Positions 6,292-17,304 of a stretch of DNA of 44,959 nucleotides are shown here, piece by piece. The position numbers and the translations under genes are program-made. The DNA is from Candidatus Woesebacteria bacterium (GTDB taxonomy: Bacteria; Patescibacteriota; Microgenomatia; UBA1400; UBA12108): positions 1 through 44,959 of the forward strand of contig JAGOVG010000007.1 in NCBI GenBank assembly GCA_018060845.1, given 5' to 3'. Under the pieces are notes generated by a model that searched no databases, was not told the origin of the DNA, and was given only the letters and a program-made list of their open reading frames with translations. Numbering within the stretch: the stretch's first letter is position 1; every line of letters starts with the position of its first letter.

Positions 6292-6312
6292 GCCCTGAGC
6301 TAGCCGAAGGGC
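6292..6312. repeat. Short REP-like palindrome abutting the tRNA 5' end
   Basis: GCCCTGAGCTAGCCGAAGGGC with GCCCT/AGGGC arms; shares CCTGAG...CCGAAGG with the element at 36085-36114. Confidence 0.45.
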
Positions 6313-6384
6313 CCCATCGTCTAGCCAGGTCTAGGACGGCAGGTTCTCATCCTGTTAACATCGGTTCGAATCCGATTGGGGTCA
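6310..6384 (+). tRNA. tRNA-Glu (anticodon CTC); CCA not encoded
   Basis: Folded by hand: acceptor GGCCCCA/TGGGGTC, D stem GTCT/GGAC, anticodon stem GCAGG/CCTGT with loop TTCTCAT, T arm ATCGG-TTCGAAT-CCGAT, discriminator A at 6384. Confidence 0.95.
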
Positions 6385-7855
6385 CATTATCAGATTTTAG
6401 GCCATTAATACCCCGCAATACCTCAAGTACGACAGGGGTTCGATAGTCTAATCCGTCCCAAACCAATTTTTCTGGGAATATCGAACCCTGATAAGCAATT
6501 TTTCCTTCAATGGGTAAACTATCCCACCTATCCTTAATATTTGTGACAAAACTTTTACCAAACTTCGTCAACTCATCAATATTTACTTCTGGTACGGCGA
6601 CCTCTTCGTTTTGTCTTGTTTGCAAAATCATCAATTCTTGCTCATAACCTGTTTTAAGGGTAGTAAAAGTATCTTTATCAATATCATCATCTAATCTCAT
6701 CTCGACTAATCTCTGTTTTTTAGATTCTAATTCCTTAATACGTTTTAATAATTTTTCCTGCTCTGACACACTTGATACAACGTGAGTCGATAATTGTTCC
6801 TTAAAAATCTCGAAATACAAATCAATCGCCTCTTTTTCTGGCTCAATCTTTTCTAGTAAATCGGAGAATTTTGCATGAAGAGTTTTTGACGAATGATTCC
6901 CAGAGTCCCTGTTATGACAGAAGTAATAGCCGTATTTATTACCCCATCTACCCGAAGACATCGCACCAGTAAAAGTATGACCGCAATCGCCAAGTATCAA
7001 ACCTTTAAGAGGAAAGTTTTCATTTGTTGTTTTCCTAATAATGGAAAATTGCTTACCTTGTTTAACCTGCTGACACTTTTCAAAAATATCAGTTGATATC
7101 AAAGGGGTATGTAGACCCTTGCGTAGTTTGTTATCAATTTTGTTACGAGTAAATCCGATGTAGAAAGGGTTTGTAATCAGGGTGACAATTTGTTGTTTAT
7201 AAAATTTAAGTTTTGTACCACGATGATTGTAGGTCGCAGTTTTATTGAGTTTGTGAGCAATCGCATGAAAACTATATAACCCTGTAGCATATAAGTTAAA
7301 TACCTCACGTATAGCATGACTACAGGCTTCATCCTCTTTCGCTACGGACAGTCGTTCACCCATGTTTTTTGGCAGGTAGTAGCCAATAGGGGGATTCCAG
7401 GGGAATAGTCCTTGCTCAAGTCGTCTTATCATGCCTAGTTTAGTCCGTTCAATCCTAATATCGTTGTCATACTCGTTCACGGCGGCGAGGATGCCCTCAA
7501 TCAACTTTGGTGACCCATCTTCACCAATATTTTCAGTAGCCGAGCGGAGGCGGATGTTTTTCTTTAGTAGTTTGCTTCTTAGATAGTGATGGTGTTCCTG
7601 TGACCTCGCAAATCGGTCAATCTTAAATACAACAAGAACGTCAAATTTTTTGTAGTTTTGGTCACAGTAATCGAGTAACTCAGCCACACGTTGAAGATTA
7701 TTTTTATTTGCTGATATAGCCTCATCAGTTACAACATCAACTACATCAAGATTTTGCTTGTTACAATACGCCCTACAAACCTGTTCCTGAGTCGCTAGGG
7801 ATGTATTAGAAACTTGTTTTTCGTCTGATATACGAAGATAGACTACTGCCTTCAT
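6347..7855 (-). CDS. Large serine recombinase (integrase)
   Basis: MKAVVYLRIS with catalytic Ser, KIDRFARS, recombinase domain (PPIGYY), Zn-ribbon-like LKGLILGDCG...YYFC, coiled coil. Probable start ATG 7855; the ORF track extends to 7897. Last codons lie antisense within the tRNA. Confidence 0.93.
   Translation of the reverse strand: MKAVVYLRISDEKQVSNTSLATQEQVCRAYCNKQNLDVVDVVTDEAISANKNNLQRVAELLDYCDQNYKKFDVLVVFKIDRFARSQEHHHYLRSKLLKKNIRLRSATENIGEDGSPKLIEGILAAVNEYDNDIRIERTKLGMIRRLEQGLFPWNPPIGYYLPKNMGERLSVAKEDEACSHAIREVFNLYATGLYSFHAIAHKLNKTATYNHRGTKLKFYKQQIVTLITNPFYIGFTRNKIDNKLRKGLHTPLISTDIFEKCQQVKQGKQFSIIRKTTNENFPLKGLILGDCGHTFTGAMSSGRWGNKYGYYFCHNRDSGNHSSKTLHAKFSDLLEKIEPEKEAIDLYFEIFKEQLSTHVVSSVSEQEKLLKRIKELESKKQRLVEMRLDDDIDKDTFTTLKTGYEQELMILQTRQNEEVAVPEVNIDELTKFGKSFVTNIKDRWDSLPIEGKIAYQGSIFPEKLVWDGLDYRTPVVLEVLRGINGLKSDNVTPIGFEPMLTG
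6375..6386 (+). repeat. att core, left copy (ATTGGGGTCACA)
   Basis: Overlaps the last 10 nt of tRNA-Glu; exact second copy at 11869-11880. Confidence 0.8.
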
Positions 7856-8006
7856 AAATAACCCTAGGCAGGATATTTTTAATAATGGCTTGTTCAACGG
7901 CTATTTTAGCAATATTCTCGAGATTAGCCATCCATAATAGCAAAGCATCATCAGACACTTGAGCATACTTAACACCAAGAATATCGCGAACCCTATCAAT
8001 CGTCAT
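7806..8006 (-). CDS. Small protein coupled between Rep and integrase; candidate recombination directionality factor
   Basis: MTIDRVRDILGVKYAQVSDDALL...; overlaps the Rep stop and the integrase start. Function is inferred from position only. Confidence 0.55.
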   Translation of the reverse strand: MTIDRVRDILGVKYAQVSDDALLLWMANLENIAKIAVEQAIIKNILPRVIYEGSSLSSYIRRKTSF

Positions 8007-8994
8007 GAGCAATCCTATGAATTTTAGGAGGTAAACCAGCAGTTAAGGTAATCTCAATATCATCAGAATCAGGGTTATCAACTTCGTCAAACAAGAATCC
8101 CAAATTCTTCTTCTGTAGTAATAATTTAAGTTTGTCTGGGGATAAATCACTAAAAATGCGTTTACCAACTCTATCTGGCCTAGTACACGACCTACTAACC
8201 GAGTATCTACGTTCAAAATACTTAAATCCGCCAATAGGATTACCTTTATGAGTATCAATCCCATCAACAATATAATTAAGTACGTATCTGCTAATACGGT
8301 TTACACTTTTCACCTTTTCAATGTGGATATCGATACCGCCTCCAATATGCATCCATACCTTCCTGATAATCTCAGCAGGTAAAAATTGATTTAATAGGAT
8401 ATGAAGGTGGGCAATACCAGTACCAGGTTGAAATTGTAGAACCCAGATATATTTTAGGATGTTTACTTGTTTCTTTAACTCAAATTTATAAAATCGTTTC
8501 TTCTTGGTGCTGTAATAGGTAAACTTATTACGCTTAAGGGTTACAACCAGGTGATTAAACTTTTTGGTTATGTACTCATGCGTTTTGTTTACCCCGTTAC
8601 CAAAATACTCAAGGGGAATCGTTTTGGGGTCAAGAGTTAAGACCAAGTGATACCAAATATCATTAAGTAAAGCAATATTAAGTAATAGATACTTGAGTCG
8701 CAGGGCCTTTTTAATCTGACACCTGGGACAAGTCCAGGAATTACACCCAATCCTTTTGACGTTAATCTGTGCGAGTCTTTTACCCTCATAAACCATGAAA
8801 GCAATTTTTCTAGACTCGCAAAATCGCGGAGGGATAAGTCTAGTCTTAAATTTACGCCCATATAGTTTGGTTTTGATTTGACGAATCCATTCCTTCTGGG
8901 AGTCAGTCTGTTGAGATGATCTATTATTAGTCAAGACTAGTACCTGCCGCTTCGCGTCAGGTAAGGGGGCACATGGGGATTCCGTCTTTTTCAT
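7996..8994 (-). CDS. HUH-superfamily rolling-circle replication initiator (Rep)
   Basis: Cys cluster CNSWTCPRC, motif I HLVLTLDP, motif II QFQPGTGIAHLHILL, motif III-like SRYVLNY. Confidence 0.8.
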   Translation of the reverse strand: MKKTESPCAPLPDAKRQVLVLTNNRSSQQTDSQKEWIRQIKTKLYGRKFKTRLIPPRFCESRKIAFMVYEGKRLAQINVKRIGCNSWTCPRCQIKKALRLKYLLLNIALLNDIWYHLVLTLDPKTIPLEYFGNGVNKTHEYITKKFNHLVVTLKRNKFTYYSTKKKRFYKFELKKQVNILKYIWVLQFQPGTGIAHLHILLNQFLPAEIIRKVWMHIGGGIDIHIEKVKSVNRISRYVLNYIVDGIDTHKGNPIGGFKYFERRYSVSRSCTRPDRVGKRIFSDLSPDKLKLLLQKKNLGFLFDEVDNPDSDDIEITLTAGLPPKIHRIAHDD

Positions 8995-9056
8995 GACGGA
9001 ATCCTAAAAGAAAAGGCTCAGAAAATATAACCAGATAACCTAGGAGTAAATGATAT

Positions 9057-9815
9057 TTACTTAAAACGCTTTGAGTATTTTGCTATACGTTCCTTGTAGT
9101 GTAGTATCTTATTGCTCACCCAGGCATAATCACCAATATACTTATGGCTTGGGTATTTGTCTGACAATTTAACTGATATTTGCTTGGCAGATAATCCATG
9201 CTGGTACATCTGAAACACCTCATCAATGAGTTTAATGTCCTTTAATTTATCTTTAAGGATTGGGGATTGAAGTAAATAGCGACTATTCCATTTTTCAATC
9301 TCGTCCCAATTCATATTTACCCATTCAATAAACTCAGTTTTAGAAACAATGTGTGAAAAAGTAATACCAGTAAGTTTTTGATGGTTTTCTTGAGTATATT
9401 GCATATACTCACCAATCTCTGCGTTATCAGGGAAGTACCTTATATCTGGGAATTTACTTATATCTATTACTGGAAAAATGTCATAGCGGATAAGCATCAT
9501 TATTGAATCCGCAAGACCATCCCACAAGTCATAGTCCATAAGTAACCCTATGACAAAATCACGGTCAGAAGCAAAAAATTGATGAATATCTTGGTTAATA
9601 TCTGCTACAACCCAACTTTTAGTCTCACCATAATACACACTTTCCTCGCGCATACCGGCTATAAACTTCTGAAAATTGGGGGAATTTAACAGGGCTGTAA
9701 CAAGAGATACTGTTTCTTTGTTGGGTTTGAATGCTTTCTTGTAAATAAACTTAATATCAGGGGGTATGCCATCGATTAAAGGTTTTACAAAAGTAATATC
9801 AGTAAGTTTAATCAT
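9057..9815 (-). CDS. Hypothetical protein with a possible C-terminal helix-turn-helix
   Basis: Long open frame; C-terminal LSAKQISVKLSDKYP...YAWVSNKILHYK looks HTH-like. Start ATG 9815 or 9845. Confidence 0.6.
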   Translation of the reverse strand: MIKLTDITFVKPLIDGIPPDIKFIYKKAFKPNKETVSLVTALLNSPNFQKFIAGMREESVYYGETKSWVVADINQDIHQFFASDRDFVIGLLMDYDLWDGLADSIMMLIRYDIFPVIDISKFPDIRYFPDNAEIGEYMQYTQENHQKLTGITFSHIVSKTEFIEWVNMNWDEIEKWNSRYLLQSPILKDKLKDIKLIDEVFQMYQHGLSAKQISVKLSDKYPSHKYIGDYAWVSNKILHYKERIAKYSKRFK

Positions 9816-9869
9816 AAGGGAATCCCAAGCCTGTCTTGCAACCAAACCGCTGTACCAAGCAAAAGAGGC

Positions 9870-9937
9870 TTTTTTAACATCTGCGGGGATTTTACCACGG
9901 CAGAGCCGTGGTAGCAGGGGGAGCAGATGTTAAAAAA
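9870..9937. repeat. Two-tier inverted repeat (15-bp outer arms, 9-bp inner arms)
   Basis: TTTTTTAACATCTGC (9870-9884) / GCAGATGTTAAAAAA (9923-9937) enclosing TACCACGGC-AGA-GCCGTGGTA (9893-9913). Confidence 0.9.
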
Positions 9938-9972
9938 ACAATGTATGTCCGAACCTCAGTAATTTAAGTAAA

Positions 9973-10857
9973 TTACTTTTTGATAGACAAATATTTTTCC
10001 TTAAAAGTATTTAATGAATTTTGCATTGTATTTTCAAAAAAATTACGCAATATATAAAAAACCCAATCAGGGACTAAAGGCCCTTTTCTATAAATATAAA
10101 TACTATCTTGTATGTTTCTCAACTCATCAATCTGTAAATTGTGGTCATTAACCAAGACAGATTCGGAAAGTTTACTAATTTTTGTTTCTAATCCCGCACG
10201 ATTGATAGAGTCTGAGTTGAAATCTCTAGCTTCTTGTATGCCCATGACATAACTCGGTATACAAGGTAAAACTAATACAAGTATAAAATCATATACAGTT
10301 AAGCCAAATTTAATACCAATTATGATTGTTGAAAGAAAAAATATTAATATAATTAATGACAATAATAATGAGAATATTCTTTTAAGTCTCCAATCCCAAG
10401 CAAGATTACTACGTTGGCAAAGCAAAACATCTAGAGGATACGGAAATCCTGATACATCACCGTACCAGTCCTTTAGAAGTTCCATATCTCCTTCAAATTT
10501 TTTACTACCATAAATAATGCTTTCTTCAGAGGGTTTTTCCCCGGCTAGAGCATAATTCCACGACATGCGGAATAGTCCCGTATCAATTTCTTCCTGTATA
10601 TTCACAGCCAAATTAACTATTTTTTTCTCAATATTCTGCAATATAAAAGATGCTATTACCCACAAAGAGCTCATAACGCCTGCTGTTATCTTAGTAGAAG
10701 GATACAAAATTACTAATAGAGGGGTAAATATTGCAAAAAATATTGATATTAATAACCTAGAATTATGTAGTTTTTTCCCCACACTATAGAAATATCTTTG
10801 TGAGGCCAGTCTATCAATATTTTCTCTTTGATTTTGATTTACAGAAATATAAGACAT
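9973..10857 (-). CDS. S-4TM (SMODS-associated 4-TM) putative CBASS effector
   Basis: Two TM pairs; QEEIDTGLF, KDWY, LLCQRSNLAWD and VPDWVFYILR motifs recalled for the S_4TM family. Start 10857 is 1 nt after the CD-NTase stop; the ORF track starts at 10890. Confidence 0.8.
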   Translation of the reverse strand: MSYISVNQNQRENIDRLASQRYFYSVGKKLHNSRLLISIFFAIFTPLLVILYPSTKITAGVMSSLWVIASFILQNIEKKIVNLAVNIQEEIDTGLFRMSWNYALAGEKPSEESIIYGSKKFEGDMELLKDWYGDVSGFPYPLDVLLCQRSNLAWDWRLKRIFSLLLSLIILIFFLSTIIIGIKFGLTVYDFILVLVLPCIPSYVMGIQEARDFNSDSINRAGLETKISKLSESVLVNDHNLQIDELRNIQDSIYIYRKGPLVPDWVFYILRNFFENTMQNSLNTFKEKYLSIKK

Positions 10858-10858
10858 A

Positions 10859-11731
10859 TTAGTAATAATATGATGGAAATTTTTCTGCAAAAATCAAATT
10901 CCACCAATAAAATGAATCAGATATATTGTTAGCGTTTTCGCACGACTTTGCATTTACCGCTCTTGTATACGCGGTATTAAGCTTAGAAAGAGTTTCTGTT
11001 TTAGCGTTTTCAGTTTTTAACCCATCAATGTATCCACCTACTCCAACAGGGTCAATTATTTTTGCTAAATTAATATCAATTAAATACTTAAAAACATCTC
11101 TAATATCAATAGAATATATGATAGAGTCTTGGGTGGAAATGTACTTAGCGGTGCGCATTTCTAAATAAAAGGAAGAAATAGGAACATTATTGTAAAATTT
11201 CCATGCTTTAATAAATCTGATTAGAGGTTTTACTTTAAAACCGAGTGACTCATTCAGTTGAGTTACGTACTTATTGTTAGCCATTGGGCTAGACTTCATC
11301 CAAGACCCATATGTATCAGGAATATCATAAATATTAACTCCATTCTCAGTTTTCATATAATCAGATGGAATAATTTCAGTAGTTTCAGATGCCTTACTGC
11401 CAAAATCAACAACCACTGCTGGACTATCTACATAGATATTAGAGCTAGGAAATCTAGTTTGTAATGCTTCTTTAACTTTTCTTAATGAGGTAATAGAATT
11501 ATCAGATAAATTTTCCCTTGGTATTACAGAAAAATAATCTGTATCACTATAGCCATTTACATTAGTCCCATTACCTATAGAGCCTGTTCTAAAGAAATTA
11601 GTCATGCCAAAATTATTCTCTAAACAAGCTTTAATAGAGGCTCTATGACTTTTGACTGCTTCAGACTCACTATTTACAATTTTTAACTTTTCGTGGAAAT
11701 CTCGAAAACCTTCATCAATAGTCCGTGGCAT
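10859..11731 (-). CDS. cGAS/DncV-like nucleotidyltransferase (CD-NTase, SMODS domain)
   Basis: GS-x11-DTD (GSIGNGTNVNGYSDTD), third acidic residue in TEIIP, KPLIRFIKAWK...PISSFYLE helical lobe. Confidence 0.88.
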   Translation of the reverse strand: MPRTIDEGFRDFHEKLKIVNSESEAVKSHRASIKACLENNFGMTNFFRTGSIGNGTNVNGYSDTDYFSVIPRENLSDNSITSLRKVKEALQTRFPSSNIYVDSPAVVVDFGSKASETTEIIPSDYMKTENGVNIYDIPDTYGSWMKSSPMANNKYVTQLNESLGFKVKPLIRFIKAWKFYNNVPISSFYLEMRTAKYISTQDSIIYSIDIRDVFKYLIDINLAKIIDPVGVGGYIDGLKTENAKTETLSKLNTAYTRAVNAKSCENANNISDSFYWWNLIFAEKFPSYYY

Positions 11732-11868
11732 AAGTTTAATAATTTGTATTCTGTAAGAACTCTATTATATTACAACTGTAAATAGATGTAGCACTTCACA
11801 TATTAAATCCTCTCGAAATCGATAAAATCTCTCTAAAGAGAAGGAAAATATGGTTCACGTTTTGTATA

Positions 11869-11880
11869 ATTGGGGTCACA
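11869..11880 (+). repeat. att core, right copy (ATTGGGGTCACA)
   Basis: Exact match to 6375-6386; lies just upstream of the CD-NTase gene. Confidence 0.8.
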
Positions 11881-12007
11881 CATCTCAGATGTCTAGAACT
11901 AACCTGTTAGGATTAGAAGAATATATCGTCGATGTCAAACATTTCACCGCCACTATTTTGAAAATTTACTTCCATTACCCTTACTAGCCGTATAATCTCA
12001 CTAAATT

Positions 12008-12744
12008 ATGGAGAAAGTCGGCATTAAACAATATCGAGGATTACCGTGTGCATGGTGTGGTGAAAAATATCACGACCGCGCTCATGTACCTACTAAGTTT
12101 TTAATTCCAAAAGACGAACGGAATAACCCTAAGTGGCCAATATTACCTTCATGTCGGAAGTGTAATGAAGGGCTAAAGCTAGATGAAGAATGGTTAACTG
12201 TTCATTTTTGTTCTCTACTCTATGACTATTCTAAAGTTGCCAAGAAAATGTTTGACGGACCTGTGACTAAACATTTTCAGAAACACAGGTCAATTGCGAG
12301 TAGATATAACAAATACTTAAGCTTAGTGGAGCTTAAAGTTAATGACATTTCATTAGGCTTAAAAACTAGAATTGATATGAGCCAGGAAGATTGGAATCGA
12401 CTTGAACGTGTTGCAGAAATGTTTGCCAGAGGACTTTACTACTGGCATAATCTGCAAACAGCACAAAAACTAAAGGCCAAGGTAGTCTACCTTACACCAA
12501 AGAGATTTAAAGACTTTAGTCACCATATTAAGTCACTAAAAGTATATCCGATATTCCCTATTACTTTTGAATATGCATATGGCTATGTGTCTACAACTGA
12601 AAAGCAGCTTTTGTAATTATGATTTATGGAAAACCTGCTTTTCAGGTACTACTTATAGCAGGTAATAAATACGACAAAATGGAGTCAAAAGTAAAACTAG
12701 GTGAAGTTGTGCGAACAAGTGAGCCAAGTATAGAAATATACTAG
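12008..12744 (+). pseudogene. HNH endonuclease-like gene interrupted by a -1 frameshift near 12601-12604
   Basis: CAWCG...RAHVP...PSCRKCN. Frame 0 stops at 12616, but the -1 frame continues AAFVIMIYGKPAFQVLLIAG...SIEIY* to 12744. Confidence 0.6.
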
Positions 12745-12838
12745 CAGAGGACTTATAGCTCTTATCAATAACTAAGCTTAATCTCCTTAATACCCTATAA
12801 CTGTATAGTAAAGACTTATTTTGCTATAATTCCTGTTC

Positions 12839-13582
12839 ATGAAGCGCGTATTCGAATCTAGGAAAAGTAATACATTTAGTCTCAGTGTAGGGGTTGGAGA
12901 TCGCGATATCAGCACCTGGGAGGAAGAAGCATCAAGTCTTGATTATATTATCGCTAATCAAACTTTCCCCAAGGCTACTACCAAGGTCTTATTAGGTAAA
13001 AATGCCAACCCAGGAAATATTAAAAACACTGTTGAAAGCTTTGCAGGACGAGCTAGCGTGATTGATACAATGTTCTTCTTCTTCAGTGGTCATGGGCTAC
13101 CGGACAGTATTAATCTAGCGAGAGGTAAAAGCACTTTAGATTATCCAAAGGATAATCTTTTTCATGACCTCTCACTTTTTCCTGGAAGAAGAATTGTAAT
13201 ACTGTCTTCTTGCCACGGTGGTTTTCAGAGTATTTCCCCGAACACCTTGCTAGTCACACCTTCACAACAAGAAACCCATGCTTTTGGAAGGAGATTTTTT
13301 GTGGATGTTCTACATGAGTTCATCGACGCGAGCCATGCACCCCACGCACTTACATACTTGATAAACAGTTTCTTAACTAACTATCATAACCGTCCTTACG
13401 GACCACTGAATGACCGAGTTTGGGAACAAGATCCCCACCATCCAGATTTAGATATTTATAAGGTTGAAAAGGAAACTGGCCAAATATTGCTAATGAACTA
13501 CCAAAGAGCTTTTGTATTATCAAGCATCTTAGGGGATGGGACGATTTTACGTGTCGATCCAAAATGCTATTTTCCTCGCTAA
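12839..13582 (+). CDS. Caspase-like (peptidase C14/clan CD) protein
   Basis: FFFFSGHG (His) and IVILSSCHGG (Cys) in caspase/metacaspase order; extended -10 TGcTATAAT 8 nt before the ATG. Confidence 0.65.
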   Translation: MKRVFESRKSNTFSLSVGVGDRDISTWEEEASSLDYIIANQTFPKATTKVLLGKNANPGNIKNTVESFAGRASVIDTMFFFFSGHGLPDSINLARGKSTLDYPKDNLFHDLSLFPGRRIVILSSCHGGFQSISPNTLLVTPSQQETHAFGRRFFVDVLHEFIDASHAPHALTYLINSFLTNYHNRPYGPLNDRVWEQDPHHPDLDIYKVEKETGQILLMNYQRAFVLSSILGDGTILRVDPKCYFPR

Positions 13583-13774
13583 TCAATAGTGTTATTCCCG
13601 TACTACAGATAAGTACATCCCCCATGTCAAATCTGCGAACTCATATTTACTTCCGAAGAGGATACTGTTTAATCTACTAAATACATGTCATAAGAGAATA
13701 GACAAAACAAACCAATTAGATGTGAGATAATCTGTTTTGGTAGTAGTAAAAATCGCTCTCACAATAATAGTTTT

Positions 13775-14113
13775 ATGAAATATCAAATCAAAAGTATCTC
13801 CAAAATCCCACTAGAGGGAACGCACGATTTACCTAACTCTAGGCAGACGCTAGCTACTACCAGTGATGTTATAACCAATAATCTTGATGCACTGACTAAA
13901 GGGATTCTGGCAGCAGGCAAAGTATGGGACTGGCATAGCCACGAAGAGTATGACGAATTATGCATAGTCATAAAGGGTACTGGTAAATTTTATTGGGAGG
14001 ATGAGGTGCGCGAATATAAGAACAATGATGTAATCATCATCCCAGCAAAAGGTAAACATAAAATCGAGGCAACAGAAGATAGTGAATTTTACTTTGTCAG
14101 AATTAAAGTCTAA
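13775..14113 (+). CDS. Cupin-domain protein
   Basis: WHSHEEYDELCIVIKG and PAKGKH motifs. Confidence 0.9.
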   Translation: MKYQIKSISKIPLEGTHDLPNSRQTLATTSDVITNNLDALTKGILAAGKVWDWHSHEEYDELCIVIKGTGKFYWEDEVREYKNNDVIIIPAKGKHKIEATEDSEFYFVRIKV

Positions 14114-14128
14114 ATTTAAGTACACTAT

Positions 14129-14989
14129 ATGAATTGGATTGTCGCAAGCATACTCATGCTCGTTAGCTCTGTTGGGTTGTATTTGTTTGTGCGAAAAAGT
14201 AATACGCTTAAGACCCCACAGCAGTTAAACAACCTAGCCATGTTTTTGGTACCGGTCGTAGTCTATCTGATAATGACTGTGGGTACTCCCACTGATTTTG
14301 TACTAGAACCTTTTGAATATTTGTTGATAATCATCCAAGCGATATTCTTTAGTTATCTTGGCAACGTATTTTCACTAAAAGGTATCGAATACGCTCCCAA
14401 CCCTGGGTACAGCTTAACTATCTCTCGAAGCTATGTTGTCTTTACTGCTATTGCGTCTATCTATCTTTTTGACTCTCCACTTACAACTAAGTCAGTCATC
14501 GCAATTGTTTGTATTATTATATTTGCAGCTTTGATAGCAATCGATAAGGACAGAGATAAACTAGGATCTAATGCAGCATGGCTCCCCTATACAATTGGGG
14601 CGTTTTTTTGTGCTGGGTTCTCGGCGCTATCTTCTAAATACCTACTTAACGTAGGTGTGCCGATACTCACTAGGCTCCTCTACTCAATGTTATTAGTCAC
14701 TATACTGATCGTTGGCGAAATAGTAGTTAAGAAAGTAAATTTAAAAAATACTTCTAAACCTCAACTCTTAACTCTACTCATGATAGGTATTTTTGGAGCG
14801 AGCTTTAACTACTTTATGCAGGTAGCTTTTGACCTAGCACCAAATGTGGGCTATGTTAACGCCACAAACGCTGCCTCTATATCACTGCTAACTATTATGT
14901 CGTATTTAGTTTTTAAGGATGAGTTGAGTATAAAGAAAATGATTGGGATTGTCGGAGTAACTACTGGCTTGATACTACTATTTGTCTGA
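14129..14989 (+). CDS. EamA/DMT-family transporter
   Basis: About 10 TM helices in two repeats; C-terminal FKDELSIKKMIGIVGVTTGLILL. Confidence 0.85.
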   Translation: MNWIVASILMLVSSVGLYLFVRKSNTLKTPQQLNNLAMFLVPVVVYLIMTVGTPTDFVLEPFEYLLIIIQAIFFSYLGNVFSLKGIEYAPNPGYSLTISRSYVVFTAIASIYLFDSPLTTKSVIAIVCIIIFAALIAIDKDRDKLGSNAAWLPYTIGAFFCAGFSALSSKYLLNVGVPILTRLLYSMLLVTILIVGEIVVKKVNLKNTSKPQLLTLLMIGIFGASFNYFMQVAFDLAPNVGYVNATNAASISLLTIMSYLVFKDELSIKKMIGIVGVTTGLILLFV

Positions 14990-15038
14990 TTACTCTTGAA
15001 GTAGGTATGAATACACTATATAGCAGTAAGTCTACAAA

Positions 15039-15656
15039 TTAGTTATCTTTGACTTTAGCAACTACCTGAATCCATTTGTCATCGATAACTCTGGATATCA
15101 ACATAGTATATCCAGATTTATACATGATTTGTGTGAGTAAACCTTCATCATAATATTGGAAATCACGCTCAAATCCCCTGCCTCTTGCTTCTCTCTGAGT
15201 ACCCTCTCCTTTGAGCACACTAAGAAAAACTATTTTACTGCCAGTTAGATGTTGTTTTGCTCTTGCTAGAAAGTTTGTTGTCTCATCTGGTCCAAAGTGG
15301 ACAAATACAGCGTTAGCATAAATAGCATCGAAGTTACCAGGTAATTCTTCGCTCTTTGCATCGAAAATAGTGGCATCTAGCCCTTTATCCTTGCATCTTG
15401 AGACAAACCCAGGGACAAAATCACTTGCTTTTACGATGTATCCTGCACTTTGCAGAGCCAAAGCATCCTCACCTGCTCCAGAGCCAATCTCGAAAATACT
15501 GGAACCAAAAGGAATATACTTAGTGAGAAGCGCAAGCCTGTCTAACATCGAACCTCCTCCAACTTCTTTTGTTTGTTTGGCTTCGACATATTCAGCGATG
15601 TGTTCGGTGTACTGTCTAAGATTAAAACGATCGTCTATGCTCATATTTCTCTCCAT
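15039..15656 (-). CDS. Class I SAM-dependent methyltransferase
   Basis: FEIGSGAG motif I, FDAIYANAVFVH motif IV. Confidence 0.9.
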   Translation of the reverse strand: MERNMSIDDRFNLRQYTEHIAEYVEAKQTKEVGGGSMLDRLALLTKYIPFGSSIFEIGSGAGEDALALQSAGYIVKASDFVPGFVSRCKDKGLDATIFDAKSEELPGNFDAIYANAVFVHFGPDETTNFLARAKQHLTGSKIVFLSVLKGEGTQREARGRGFERDFQYYDEGLLTQIMYKSGYTMLISRVIDDKWIQVVAKVKDN

Positions 15657-15729
15657 CCAAACATGTTGATTAATAAGAATTATACATTCAGATCATATTA
15701 TTGTGTCTAAGCTATTTGTCTGACTGTAA

Positions 15730-16806
15730 TGAATAAGTCCCGATACATATTGGAATCCTAAAGAAAGGATTCTAATCATGAAAACTGGTGTATCCATGCG
15801 CCTGCGCTCTGGCGCTCTTGTTCCCTTGAGGTACACTTCCCTGATGAAAACATGGGAAAATGCACTGTCGTTCGACCGATCCGACATCGCCAAATATCGG
15901 CTACATGTACTTAAGTTTTGGGAGACTCATGGCAGATTGGCTACCGAGTCTGCTTTTGGAGTTAAAACAAGCACTCTTTATCTGTGGCGAGCGAAGCTCG
16001 CCACCACTCAAGGGAAACTAATCTCTTTAATACCCAAGAGTACCCGCCCCAAGACTACTCGCCGAATGGAGATGGATGAGAGACTAGTAGAGTTTATTCG
16101 CTCTATTAGGGAAGAGTATGGAAATGTTGGCAAGGAAGCGATTAAAACACTTCTTGTTGCCTACGCCAACTCGTTAGGACTCTCTGGGTATGGCGCCACT
16201 AAGATCGGCCGAATTATTAAACGCAATCATTACTTCTTTGAAGGAAAAAAGGTTGTAAAGAGACGTCTTGCCAGAGCTAATCGAGTAAAACGTAGTCCTA
16301 AACCGAACGCTCCTGGCTATATCGAAGTTGATTGCATCACAGTCTATGTGGAGGGACAGAAGAAGTACTTTGTAACTGGAATTGATGTCTATACTAAGCT
16401 CGCAGGCGCTCACCTCGTATCCCACCTAAACTCACGCAACACGAGAGACTTCTTAATATCCTGGCAAGAGAGCCTCCCTTACAAGATCCATACCGTTCAA
16501 ACTGATAATGGAAGTGAGTTTTTAGCCGACTTTCATAAGTATTTAGAGAGTGTGGGGATAACTCACGCCTTTATCTACCCCCACTCTCCCAAGATTAACG
16601 GCTATATAGAGCGTTTTAACTGGACAATTCAAAACCACTACGTTAACAGATGCACCCCACTCTGGAGTGGCCAGACCGAGCTCGCTAGACACAAACTAGA
16701 GAGATTTCTTCACTGGTATAATGAGGTACGACCCCATCAATCTCTAGGTTCATTAACACCTGCTGAGTTTACAAGCCAATATTCCAATATGTATGCGACC
16801 TGAACA
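15730..16806 (+). mobile_element. IS481-like insertion sequence with flanking target duplication
   Basis: 14-bp perfect IR core ATACATATTGGAAT (15743-15756) / ATTCCAATATGTAT (16781-16794); TG...CA ends; direct repeat TGTAA(T) at 15725 and 16807. Confidence 0.8.
15778..16803 (+). CDS. DDE (integrase-core) transposase, IS481-like
   Basis: N-terminal HTH, IEVD, QTDNGSEF, NGYIERFN (DDE triad), YNEVRPHQSLGSLTP. Confidence 0.92.
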   Translation: MKTGVSMRLRSGALVPLRYTSLMKTWENALSFDRSDIAKYRLHVLKFWETHGRLATESAFGVKTSTLYLWRAKLATTQGKLISLIPKSTRPKTTRRMEMDERLVEFIRSIREEYGNVGKEAIKTLLVAYANSLGLSGYGATKIGRIIKRNHYFFEGKKVVKRRLARANRVKRSPKPNAPGYIEVDCITVYVEGQKKYFVTGIDVYTKLAGAHLVSHLNSRNTRDFLISWQESLPYKIHTVQTDNGSEFLADFHKYLESVGITHAFIYPHSPKINGYIERFNWTIQNHYVNRCTPLWSGQTELARHKLERFLHWYNEVRPHQSLGSLTPAEFTSQYSNMYAT

Positions 16807-16884
16807 TGTAATTGATCCTATAGCTGTTTGTGAGATAATATCTCTCGATTAGTTGTGAATAAATATTAATCCTAAATACAATTT

Positions 16885-17274
16885 ATGAATTACGAACACT
16901 TAGTAGTGGGTAAGTTTTTTGTCCCTACTGGATACGAAAGTAAAAAATTACTAGTAGCTGAGATGGATCTAGAAGTTGCTGCATACAGATCAACTAAAGG
17001 CAGAAGTAATTTTTTTACACTTGAGCCTTTGTGTCCATTTGAAACTTGTACCCGTAAAATTGAAACAGGTGACTCGTTTAGAGGATACTTAGTATCAGCA
17101 GAACAATCTGTCTCAACTCTTGTAACACATTTGAGACATTTTCACCCTCCGCTTAACACATCTACACTAACCACGCTGGAAAGTGAGATGGCATGGAATG
17201 CTGCAGGAAAGTACTATAAACTGATAGTAGTAGGAATGAACGAACTCCTAGAGCATGCTCTCGCCGAAAAGTGA
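16885..17274 (+). CDS. Hypothetical protein with CPFETC...HLRHFH (possible Zn finger)
   Basis: 129-aa ORF filling the gap between the IS and glgA; Cys/His pairs. Confidence 0.55.
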   Translation: MNYEHLVVGKFFVPTGYESKKLLVAEMDLEVAAYRSTKGRSNFFTLEPLCPFETCTRKIETGDSFRGYLVSAEQSVSTLVTHLRHFHPPLNTSTLTTLESEMAWNAAGKYYKLIVVGMNELLEHALAEK

Positions 17275-17304
17275 GCTCGCTCAACACTAGAGTACAATAG
17301 GTAC

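Follow-up and report, generated by a model that had tools for sequence, protein, structure and literature searches.

A putative 5.5-kb integrative element pairing a serine integrase with a rolling-circle-type Rep and CBASS cargo at a tRNA-Glu gene of Candidatus Woesebacteria

We analysed a stretch of 44,959 nucleotides (hereafter the window) from a contig of Candidatus Woesebacteria, a member of the Candidate Phyla Radiation (CPR)/Patescibacteria, which holds a putative small integrative element carrying a cyclic-oligonucleotide-based anti-phage signalling system (CBASS). An intact tRNA-Glu(CTC) gene, called by ARAGORN as the sole tRNA in the window and recognized by Rfam (55.7 bits), stands at one edge of the element (coordinates of all features are collected in Table 1). 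The exact 12-bp repeat ATTGGGGTCACA occurs at the 3′ end of this tRNA gene and again at the far edge; these are its two copies in the whole window, and no further copy was found there with one mismatch allowed. Between them lie six genes, all on the minus strand, for a large serine recombinase (LSR), a 66-residue open reading frame (ORF), a HUH-type Rep, a protein designated F3, and the S-4TM and CD-NTase proteins of CBASS. An earlier note, made from the sequence alone, had described six co-oriented genes bracketed by this repeat, and all of its gene identities held in Pfam, PADLOC and PHROG comparisons. The integrated element spans 6387–11880 and would form a circle of 5,494 bp; its GC content is 0.351, compared with 0.451 in the left flank.

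The LSR has the make-up of a phage-type serine integrase, with a resolvase catalytic domain that includes the nucleophilic serine (Resolvase, PF00239, 2e-25, residues 17–163) followed by Recombinase (PF07508, 6e-13) and zinc-ribbon (Zn_ribbon_recom, PF13408, 2e-5) domains, and it matches the phrog_95 integrase profile at 2e-75. Its catalytic motif reads YLRIS, and the form Y-x-R-x-S is kept in all 21 integrases of the family described below. The LSR reading frame crosses the att core: as integrated, the protein has 502 amino acids and ends in NVTPIGFEPMLTG, whereas on the circle the frame would continue into the far end of the element (11796–11868) to give 517 amino acids ending in NVTPIIQNVNHIFLLFREILSISRGFNM. 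The two lengths differ because attP lies within the LSR gene, at its 3′ end, and the chromosomal LSR frame therefore enters its target tRNA gene.

Comparison of about 40 related loci shows one family of 4–8 kb elements, almost all on CPR/Patescibacteria contigs. Homologues of Rep numbered 54 in a large protein collection, where PF23343 was precomputed for all save one truncated protein. A Rep profile run against 1.84 billion representatives gave 56 matches at E ≤ 1e-30, 657 at E ≤ 1e-10 and 3,725 at E ≤ 1e-3; the group is a small full-length family within a wider HUH catalytic-domain superfamily. Among GTDB species representatives, 29 genome loci held a Rep relative, and the 20 closest were nearly all in metagenome-assembled genomes (MAGs) of Patescibacteria, with close relatives in Roizman-, Gottesman-, Shapiro-, Woese- and Levybacteria, WWE3 and Saccharibacteria. 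At each of the 19 informative loci (those of the 20 whose contig extends beyond Rep), an LSR gene directly followed Rep. At 16 of these 19, that is, in all relatives with an adjacent tRNA gene, the LSR frame terminated inside a tRNA on the opposite strand whose 3′ end faced the LSR (Gln 7, Ser 6, Asp 2 and Arg 1); metagenome contigs added Glu, Gly and more Ser targets.

The clustered loci contained Rep in 21 of 21 cases, an LSR in 20 of 21, an ORF of about 57 residues overlapping the Rep start in 17, F3 in 10 and an XRE-type helix-turn-helix protein in 4. Their integrases formed two clades, a commoner one with the motif YCRKS and a YLRIS clade comprising the window, L034, L035 and L009; the window LSR was 70–72% identical to those of L034 and L035, which are located at the same tRNA-Glu(CTC). 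In the other main clade, an unrelated ORF of about 57 residues before Rep replaces the small ORF of the window lineage. The smallest member, L039, has four genes in 4.0 kb.

Far junctions with a short repeat of the tRNA end and a conserved arm were identified for 12 elements. Taken by itself, the 12-bp repeat is only moderately improbable, since 5 of 300 simulations gave a match of at least 12 bp between some part of a 40-nt tRNA-end probe and 20 kb of Markov-1 random sequence. What makes it convincing is that five elements of the window lineage (the window, L130, L036/L120, L034 and L035) have the 18-nt far arm TATACAAAACGTGAACCA in conserved form at their far junctions. Their far junctions read GTGACCCC(A/G)A(T/G), then TATACAA(A/G)AC..GAA(C/T)CA; this arm, directly after the core, is conserved in L130, L036/L120, L034 and L035 with divergent, unrelated DNA to both sides. 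Beside the core on the integrase side, TTATCAG/TTATTAG is kept between the window and L034/L035, and this arm forms an imperfect mirror of the far one, ATGG-N10/11-(G/T)(T/G)ATAAT, around TGGGGTCAC in the reconstructed attP. The reconstructed junctions place GTTTTGTATAATTGGGGTCACATTATCAGATT in attP and GAATCCGATTGGGGTCACACATCTCAGATG in attB.

The host acceptor stem of L034 and L035 differs (…CCGGGATCACA), and the junctions there have only TCAC in common; the element therefore has its own copy of the tRNA-Glu end, and crossover is confined to the last bases (6382–6386). The 12-bp repeat of the window is accordingly a host tRNA that happens to match the element's own copy. In the YCRKS clade, the far junctions of seven elements of 4.0–6.4 kb comprised a 7–12 bp tRNA-end repeat, a TGGGAC-like motif, a few bases and TTGGAACTTT. 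Such short identity between attP and attB (TCAC in L034/L035, 7–12 bp in the other clade) is of the serine recombinase type, and integration at tRNA ends through serine-recombinase att sites is well supported by these junctions. The linkage of Rep, LSR and att repeats elsewhere, the absence of which the earlier note had named as grounds for abandoning its proposal, was thus found at the loci compared.

Two further observations concern the attachment of individual members. Elements L010, L011 and L017 encode YCRKS integrases that are at least 55% identical yet lie at Ser-TGA, Asp-GTC and Ser-GGA, respectively, and all of their junctions start TGGCGG; these enzymes may recognize the shared ...CCGCCA 3′ end and not one particular tRNA. 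The 4.45-kb contig L004 was considered as a possible circular form; it had no terminal overlap, and the DNA past its LSR was neither a tRNA nor a recognizable far arm.

The Rep protein (332 amino acids) carries, in order, LTLTLD (motif I), AHLHILLN (the HUH motif) and Y237-x3-Y241, and it matched phrog_3419, ‘rolling circle DNA replication initiation’, at 2e-11 and phrog_3584 at 7e-8. Across 28 aligned homologues, C-x2-W-x-C-P-x-C, LTLTLD, AHLH and Y-x3-Y were invariant or nearly so. F3 had no family match in Pfam, PHROG or a profile search of PDB sequences; a word-based search returned two homologues only, and an AlphaFold2 model built on a three-sequence alignment was poor (pLDDT 45). Towards its C terminus F3 reads as helical, perhaps a helix-turn-helix. 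Because F3 is present in 10 of the 21 clustered loci and at further metagenome loci, it belongs to the conserved core and is not cargo. The 66-residue ORF, which has no match in Pfam or PHROG, is 66–67% identical to ORFs at the same position in L034 and L035, and ORFs of 60–66 residues stand at the equivalent position in L009, L120 and L121. Proteins of about 60–70 residues act as directionality factors for other serine integrases, and the 66-residue ORF is a candidate recombination directionality factor. F3, HUH Rep, the small ORF and LSR make up the conserved core as one operon. None of the six element proteins matched capsid, terminase, Zot/pI, relaxase-coupling or partition families.

Outside this core, the element has a cargo slot whose limits are given by comparison with L130. 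This relative is 92% identical to the window over 8679–9958 (Rep start, F3 and a nested inverted repeat) and 94% identical over 11849–11883 (core repeat and far arm); between the matching stretches it has an unrelated 0.83 kb with a single ORF of 240 residues containing a HExxH motif, where the window has 1.9 kb of CBASS. The far arm therefore forms one limit of the slot and GGTWCGGACATACATTG, which precedes the nested inverted repeat by about 20 nt, the other. A cargo slot between att and hairpin, as the earlier note had placed it, was thus confirmed at nucleotide resolution, and swapping of the cargo is well supported. Cargo GC is 0.31–0.32, below that of the core.

In the window, the slot holds a type I CBASS. 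The CD-NTase keeps the active-site motif GSxG...DTD intact in translation, the effector follows 1 nt downstream, and no other gene is present in the slot, with neither Cap2/Cap3 nor HORMA/TRIP13. Compared with plasmid-borne CD-NTases, the enzyme reaches no more than 38% identity. Other members carry a TdeIII-type restriction enzyme with a C5 methylase and an Old nuclease (L035), PD-T7-4/DUF4145 with a methyltransferase (L018), a DUF4145 protein (L009) or NUDIX and methyltransferase genes (L005), and the slots of L034, L036, L022 and L016 hold unannotated genes. The sole cargo gene of the 5.3-kb member L017 (1759–3069) encodes a complete class II (Asp/Asn/Lys-type) aminoacyl-tRNA synthetase, which is 26% identical to the chromosomal AspRS of the window. 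Defence cargo is thus frequent but not universal, the cargo being recognizably defensive in only some members. The HExxH (metalloprotease motif) protein that is the sole cargo of L130 (839–1561) has a homologue, at 66% nucleotide identity, in L120 (1816–2538) and L036 (1209–1931); there it sits in a neighbouring element with a different, 527-residue LSR, so that the same gene occurs in two element types.

At the inner edge of the slot, just upstream of F3, lies the nested inverted repeat. Its outer stem is a perfect 15-bp inverted repeat (9870–9884 and 9923–9937) that encloses the 9-bp palindrome TACCACGGC tct GCCGTGGTA, followed by AAAATC. The matching architecture was found in L036, L005, L006, L011, L017, L044 and L048/L049 by an explicit stem search (MAFFT left two sequence groups two columns out of register); both stems differ in sequence and pair perfectly, a compensatory pattern, and the repeat is invariably on the Rep strand just upstream of F3. 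As single-stranded DNA it folds at −22.3 kcal/mol (z = −8.75), and no Rfam family was found at this position. What stays invariant is TGnTAAAAT(C). F3 of L034 and L035 begins with an ATG 7 nt past this motif, so that a leaderless mRNA is implied, and at that position the window has the start of a 22-codon ORF. We regard the nested repeat, by its form and position, as a candidate promoter–operator and/or replication origin, and both may hold. Under the promoter reading, the inner palindrome would be the operator; a hairpin beside a TGATA-like sequence upstream of a rep operon is the expected place of a rolling-circle double-strand origin. A terminator was rejected: on both strands a T-run precedes the stem and an A-run follows it, and a consensus scan gave no terminator there.

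Table 1 Features of the element and its target site in the window
Feature	Coordinates	Strand	Basis or remark
tRNA-Glu(CTC), integration target	6310..6385	+	ARAGORN, Rfam; still intact after insertion
attL core ATTGGGGTCACA, tRNA 3′ end	6375..6386		Crossover limited to about TCAC(A), 6382–6386
P arm, element side, beside integrase gene	6387..6413		Doubles as 3′ end of the LSR coding sequence
Large serine recombinase (LSR), 502 aa integrated	6347..7855	-	Pfam, phrog_95; stop codon within tRNA gene
66-aa ORF overlapping Rep 3′ end and LSR 5′ end	7806..8006	-	No family match (Pfam, PHROG)
HUH rolling-circle-type Rep, 332 aa	7996..8994	-	PF23343, phrog_3419, motifs
Core gene F3, 252 aa	9057..9815	-	Homologues directly upstream of Rep in other aligned loci
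22-codon upstream ORF	9812..9880	-	ATG 7 nt past TGGTAAAAT; stop overlaps F3 start codon (ATGA)
Nested inverted repeat, then TGGTAAAATC (TGGTAAAAT part, 9889–9897)	9870..9937	-	Inner edge of cargo slot
Cargo slot, 1.9 kb, holding CBASS here	9959..11850		Comparison with L130
CBASS effector S-4TM, four transmembrane helices	9973..10857	-	PF18159 2e-67; PADLOC 4TM effector 1e-62
CBASS CD-NTase, cyclic oligonucleotide synthase	10859..11731	-	PADLOC cyclase PDLC00776 1e-111; SMODS 3e-13
P′ arm, far element side; minus strand TATACAAAACGTGAACCA	11851..11868		18 nt on the element side of the far repeat copy
attR core, second ATTGGGGTCACA copy	11869..11880

The left flank of the element (UDG, cytochrome b5, cupin, GreA, AspRS and NIF3) is syntenic with many contigs. 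UDG homologues on these were 75–97% identical, and one (79%) is named Candidatus Woesebacteria by its source; together with the Patescibacteria MAGs that hold nearly all Rep loci, this supports the CPR host that the earlier note had thought probable. In a related genome, L113, the tRNA-Glu has no integrase and is followed by unrelated DNA. In L115–L118, the same tRNA-Glu(CTC) is taken by a different LSR of 577 residues, 24% identical, which also reads into the tRNA; with different elements occupying it, this tRNA is therefore an element hotspot. In this sister lineage (L115:104–4777, and likewise L116–L118; UDG 89% identical), an 869-residue DUF87/TraG-like ATPase adjoins the 577-residue LSR, and elements of this type could be a conjugative helper type in CPR. 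The right flank (11881–17300) has a GC content of 0.36–0.42 and, except for a cupin gene at 13775–14113, is not syntenic with L113. It contains unknown ORFs, a weak caspase-like match (12839–13582), an EamA transporter, a methyltransferase and an rve-family transposase (15778–16803), and looks like an accreted variable island beside the tRNA hotspot.

Tandem arrangements were seen at several loci. In L013 and L023 an LSR is followed by an attP-like junction, and in L035, L036 and L120 a second, unrelated LSR gene has its 3′ end against the far junction. This second LSR (527 residues, about 25% identical; L035:2984–4573, L036:2286–3869 and L120:2893–4476) ends exactly at the far att core, and two unrelated serine-integrase elements therefore stand head to tail at one tRNA-Glu. 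We had also considered L034 as a 10.3-kb element with a 16-bp repeat carrying AriAB and PDC-M43, and rejected this on finding that the conserved far arm puts its end at about 5120. The 3.9-kb block at L034:1248–5130, with a PARIS-like AriAB ATPase–TOPRIM gene and PDC-M43A/B and without an integrase of its own, is a separate island, with the Rep–LSR far junction on one side and, on the other, the host tRNA-Glu end copied over 16 bp. This block may be a relic, or else a defence island that hitch-hikes within a tandem array.

We consider it probable that 6387–11880 is an integrated member of a family of very small (4–8 kb) site-specific integrative elements that are capable, we infer, of excision, rolling-circle replication and cell-to-cell transfer. 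The LSR, probably with the 66-residue ORF as directionality factor, would excise the 5,494-bp circle and restore the tRNA. Rep would then nick an origin, possibly at the nested repeat, and rolling-circle replication, of the kind known from pSAM2-type elements, would amplify the circle. Entry into new cells might follow a route that the element does not itself encode, such as natural transformation, a helper phage or a conjugative element, and the circle would reintegrate using the LSR alone. CBASS, in which a CD-NTase signal would act on the S-4TM membrane effector, would protect the host by abortive infection and so favour retention of the element. Of the self-excising, self-replicating defence cassette proposed in the earlier note, the integrated element with swappable cargo stands; F3 counts as core, and the cargo is not always defensive.

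Several points weigh against this reading. No circular (attP) form or empty attB was seen, and attB could not be reconstructed from the contigs with UDG homologues, of which L113 has a different right flank, L115–L118 have another LSR element at this tRNA and several others stop at or near it. The reconstructed empty site that the earlier note expected in relatives lacking the element was accordingly not found, the right flank of L113 being unrelated. A degenerate IUPAC pattern for attL, attR, attB and attP had no match in JGI metagenome contigs, a collection that does not include the window and so gives no verdict on the empty site. The Logan contig L002 crosses attR unbroken. Rep activity is read from motifs alone: the PF23343 (REP_ORF2-G2P) score of 27.1 bits (5e-6) is slightly below the Pfam cut-off of 27.8 bits, and no BLAST-level relatives of Rep were found among GenBank phages, PLSDB plasmids or PDB chains. 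For the TGnTAAAAT motif, an extended −10 promoter is at least as good a reading as an origin. None of the element's genes offers a way out of the cell, and rolling-circle replication (RCR) initiators of this kind act as conjugative relaxases in other small integrative elements.

This last point leads to the main rival, an integrative and mobilizable element (IME) whose HUH protein is mainly a relaxase nicking oriT, with single-stranded DNA exported through mating machinery that a co-resident conjugative element supplies and RCR as a by-product. Among streptococcal IMEs, 118 of 144 encode relaxases of the RCR-initiator type (Rep_trans, Rep_2, PHA00330 and Viral_Rep), 35 of these 118 lack a coupling protein, and reviewers of these elements hold that the distinction between initiator and relaxase is probably not relevant. 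The window element likewise has its own integration and excision module, the LSR, and no type IV secretion system (T4SS) or mating-pore genes, and in sister genomes this tRNA-Glu is occupied by the other LSR element, which encodes the DUF87/TraG-like ATPase and might act as helper. However, no coupling-protein, T4SS or TcpA match was found in the six window genes or the scanned cargo of relatives, no helper was seen within the window, the Rep family matches only phage-type replication initiators, and conjugation is, to our knowledge, not established in CPR. We think an IME unlikely as the main account, noting that it and the autonomously replicating integrative element that we favour are not mutually exclusive.

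The phage-type matches of Rep raise another possibility, that the element is a satellite or reduced provirus of a small single-stranded DNA phage (inovirus- or microvirus-like), the virions of a helper packaging circles made by Rep. PF23343 and phrog_3419 are initiators of single-stranded DNA phages, reports exist of inoviruses that carry serine recombinases and use att sites at tRNAs, a number of them in CPR bacteria, and a size of 4–8 kb fits such a satellite or phage. Yet no pI/Zot ATPase, coat or capsid match was found in the core or cargo proteins scanned across the family, L039 manages with four genes in 4.0 kb, and the Rep family is absent from GenBank phages and nearly so from IMG/VR, with one distant match. 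An inovirus provirus was rejected, Pfam and PHROG giving no pI and coat genes in the element or the scanned cargo of relatives; the broader satellite explanation seems to us improbable.

A third account takes the locus as a fixed genomic island, an immobile relic whose 12-bp repeat is a coincidence or a fossil. The failure to find an excised form or an empty site agrees with it, as does a right flank that is likewise low in GC and variable. The core frames, however, are all intact with their catalytic motifs kept and the repeat is perfect, and a 92%-identical core carries different cargo in L130. One assembly, moreover, breaks exactly at the repeat: among Logan contigs of SRR11088367 that are 100% identical to the window, one ends exactly at 6386 and the next starts at 6428, leaving 6387–6427 uncovered. 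These contigs break again within the CD-NTase gene (11143–11149). The break at 6386 suggests an assembly-graph branch at the att core, which a mixed population may explain. We consider a fixed relic very improbable, and a mobile, integrated element remains our preferred reading.

No published description of the element family was found in the full-text literature, a search that cannot prove absence. Part of the earlier note's claim to an unnamed element class stands with that result; the layout itself has named analogues in integrative elements of Actinobacteria and streptococci, in pipolins and tycheposons and in the ssrA islands of Dehalococcoides. We propose tentatively, and with less than even confidence, that the family forms a class of its own, so far undescribed: minimal integrative replicons of the rolling-circle type, specific to CPR/Patescibacteria, with a radiation of LSRs that target tRNA 3′ ends (Gln, Ser, Asp, Arg, Glu and Gly) and have att within their own gene, and with a slot that serves as a main exchange route for anti-phage systems. 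If this is true, the many cargo genes still without annotation would represent new systems of defence or counter-defence. CPR/Patescibacteria hold a large share of bacterial diversity, yet scarcely any plasmids or integrative elements have been described for them, and genetic tools are very few; an element of 4–8 kb that brings its own replication gene, a defined attP, a tolerated cargo slot and a single-protein integrase directed at a conserved tRNA end is a natural blueprint for an integration or shuttle vector in CPR. A slot that has held CBASS, restriction–modification with Old, and PD-T7-4 is also a compact place to seek new defence genes in genomes thought to be defence-poor. The Islander paper states that tRNA targeting by serine integrases was not known; here a whole LSR radiation targets tRNA ends, with related enzymes at different tRNAs and the tRNA kept intact.

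Among known systems, the integrative and conjugative elements of actinomycetes (AICEs, pSAM2-like) resemble this family in being small, in lying in the 3′ end of a specific tRNA that stays functional, as the tRNA does here, in encoding a replication initiator of their own (an RCR-type protein in the case of RepSA from pSAM2) and in forming tandem insertions at one tRNA. They differ in their tyrosine integrase and Xis, FtsK-like Tra for conjugation of double-stranded DNA, spread genes, Kor regulators, size of 9–24 kb and confinement to Actinobacteria, whereas the present elements have a large serine recombinase in place of a tyrosine integrase and excisionase, no transfer gene, 4–8 kb and a CPR host; no FtsK/SpoIIIE-like Tra was found in the six proteins or the scanned cargo of relatives. 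Streptococcal IMEs (Rel_PHA00330, Rel_PF01719 and MobT) likewise combine an integrase, an HUH initiator-like protein, which may serve both maintenance and transfer, and passenger genes, some without a coupling protein. Unlike the present family, those at tRNA 3′ ends use tyrosine integrases, those with serine integrases insert in and disrupt protein-coding genes, and the phylum is a different one.

The ssrA-specific islands of Dehalococcoides (DsiB) share a serine recombinase of about 540 residues by attL, insertion at the 3′ end of the tmRNA gene, tandem arrays and variable cargo; their direct repeat is 20 bp, and they differ in having no replication gene, a second small serine recombinase (a CcrA/CcrB-like pair), a ParB-like gene and ssrA as their only target. 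Pipolins, for which a role as defence-system reservoirs has been described, and tycheposons are also integrative at tRNA genes, with their own replication modules and variable cargo, and each tycheposon integrase clade targets a particular tRNA. Pipolins, however, encode a primer-independent PolB, and no gene here has a polymerase domain; tycheposons have primases, helicases or polymerases and nearly all use tyrosine recombinases, few encoding large serine recombinases. Both are much larger (10–40 kb), and both lack an HUH Rep as well as an att site within the integrase gene. Integrated inoviruses (Tubulavirales), among them those reported from CPR, are 5–10 kb long, encode an RCR initiator and in some cases a serine recombinase, and have direct repeats of at least 10 bp at tRNAs, but are defined by the pI/Zot ATPase and coat proteins that are absent here and in the relatives examined. 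As a type I CBASS, the system in the window is ordinary (CD-NTase, then S-4TM); its location on a 5.5-kb CPR element is unusual. The family is thus undescribed but its kind is known, that of small integrative elements with their own replication gene at tRNA genes, and what distinguishes it is the joint presence of LSR and HUH Rep, an att site inside the integrase gene, serine integrases that target tRNAs, very small size and a CPR host range.

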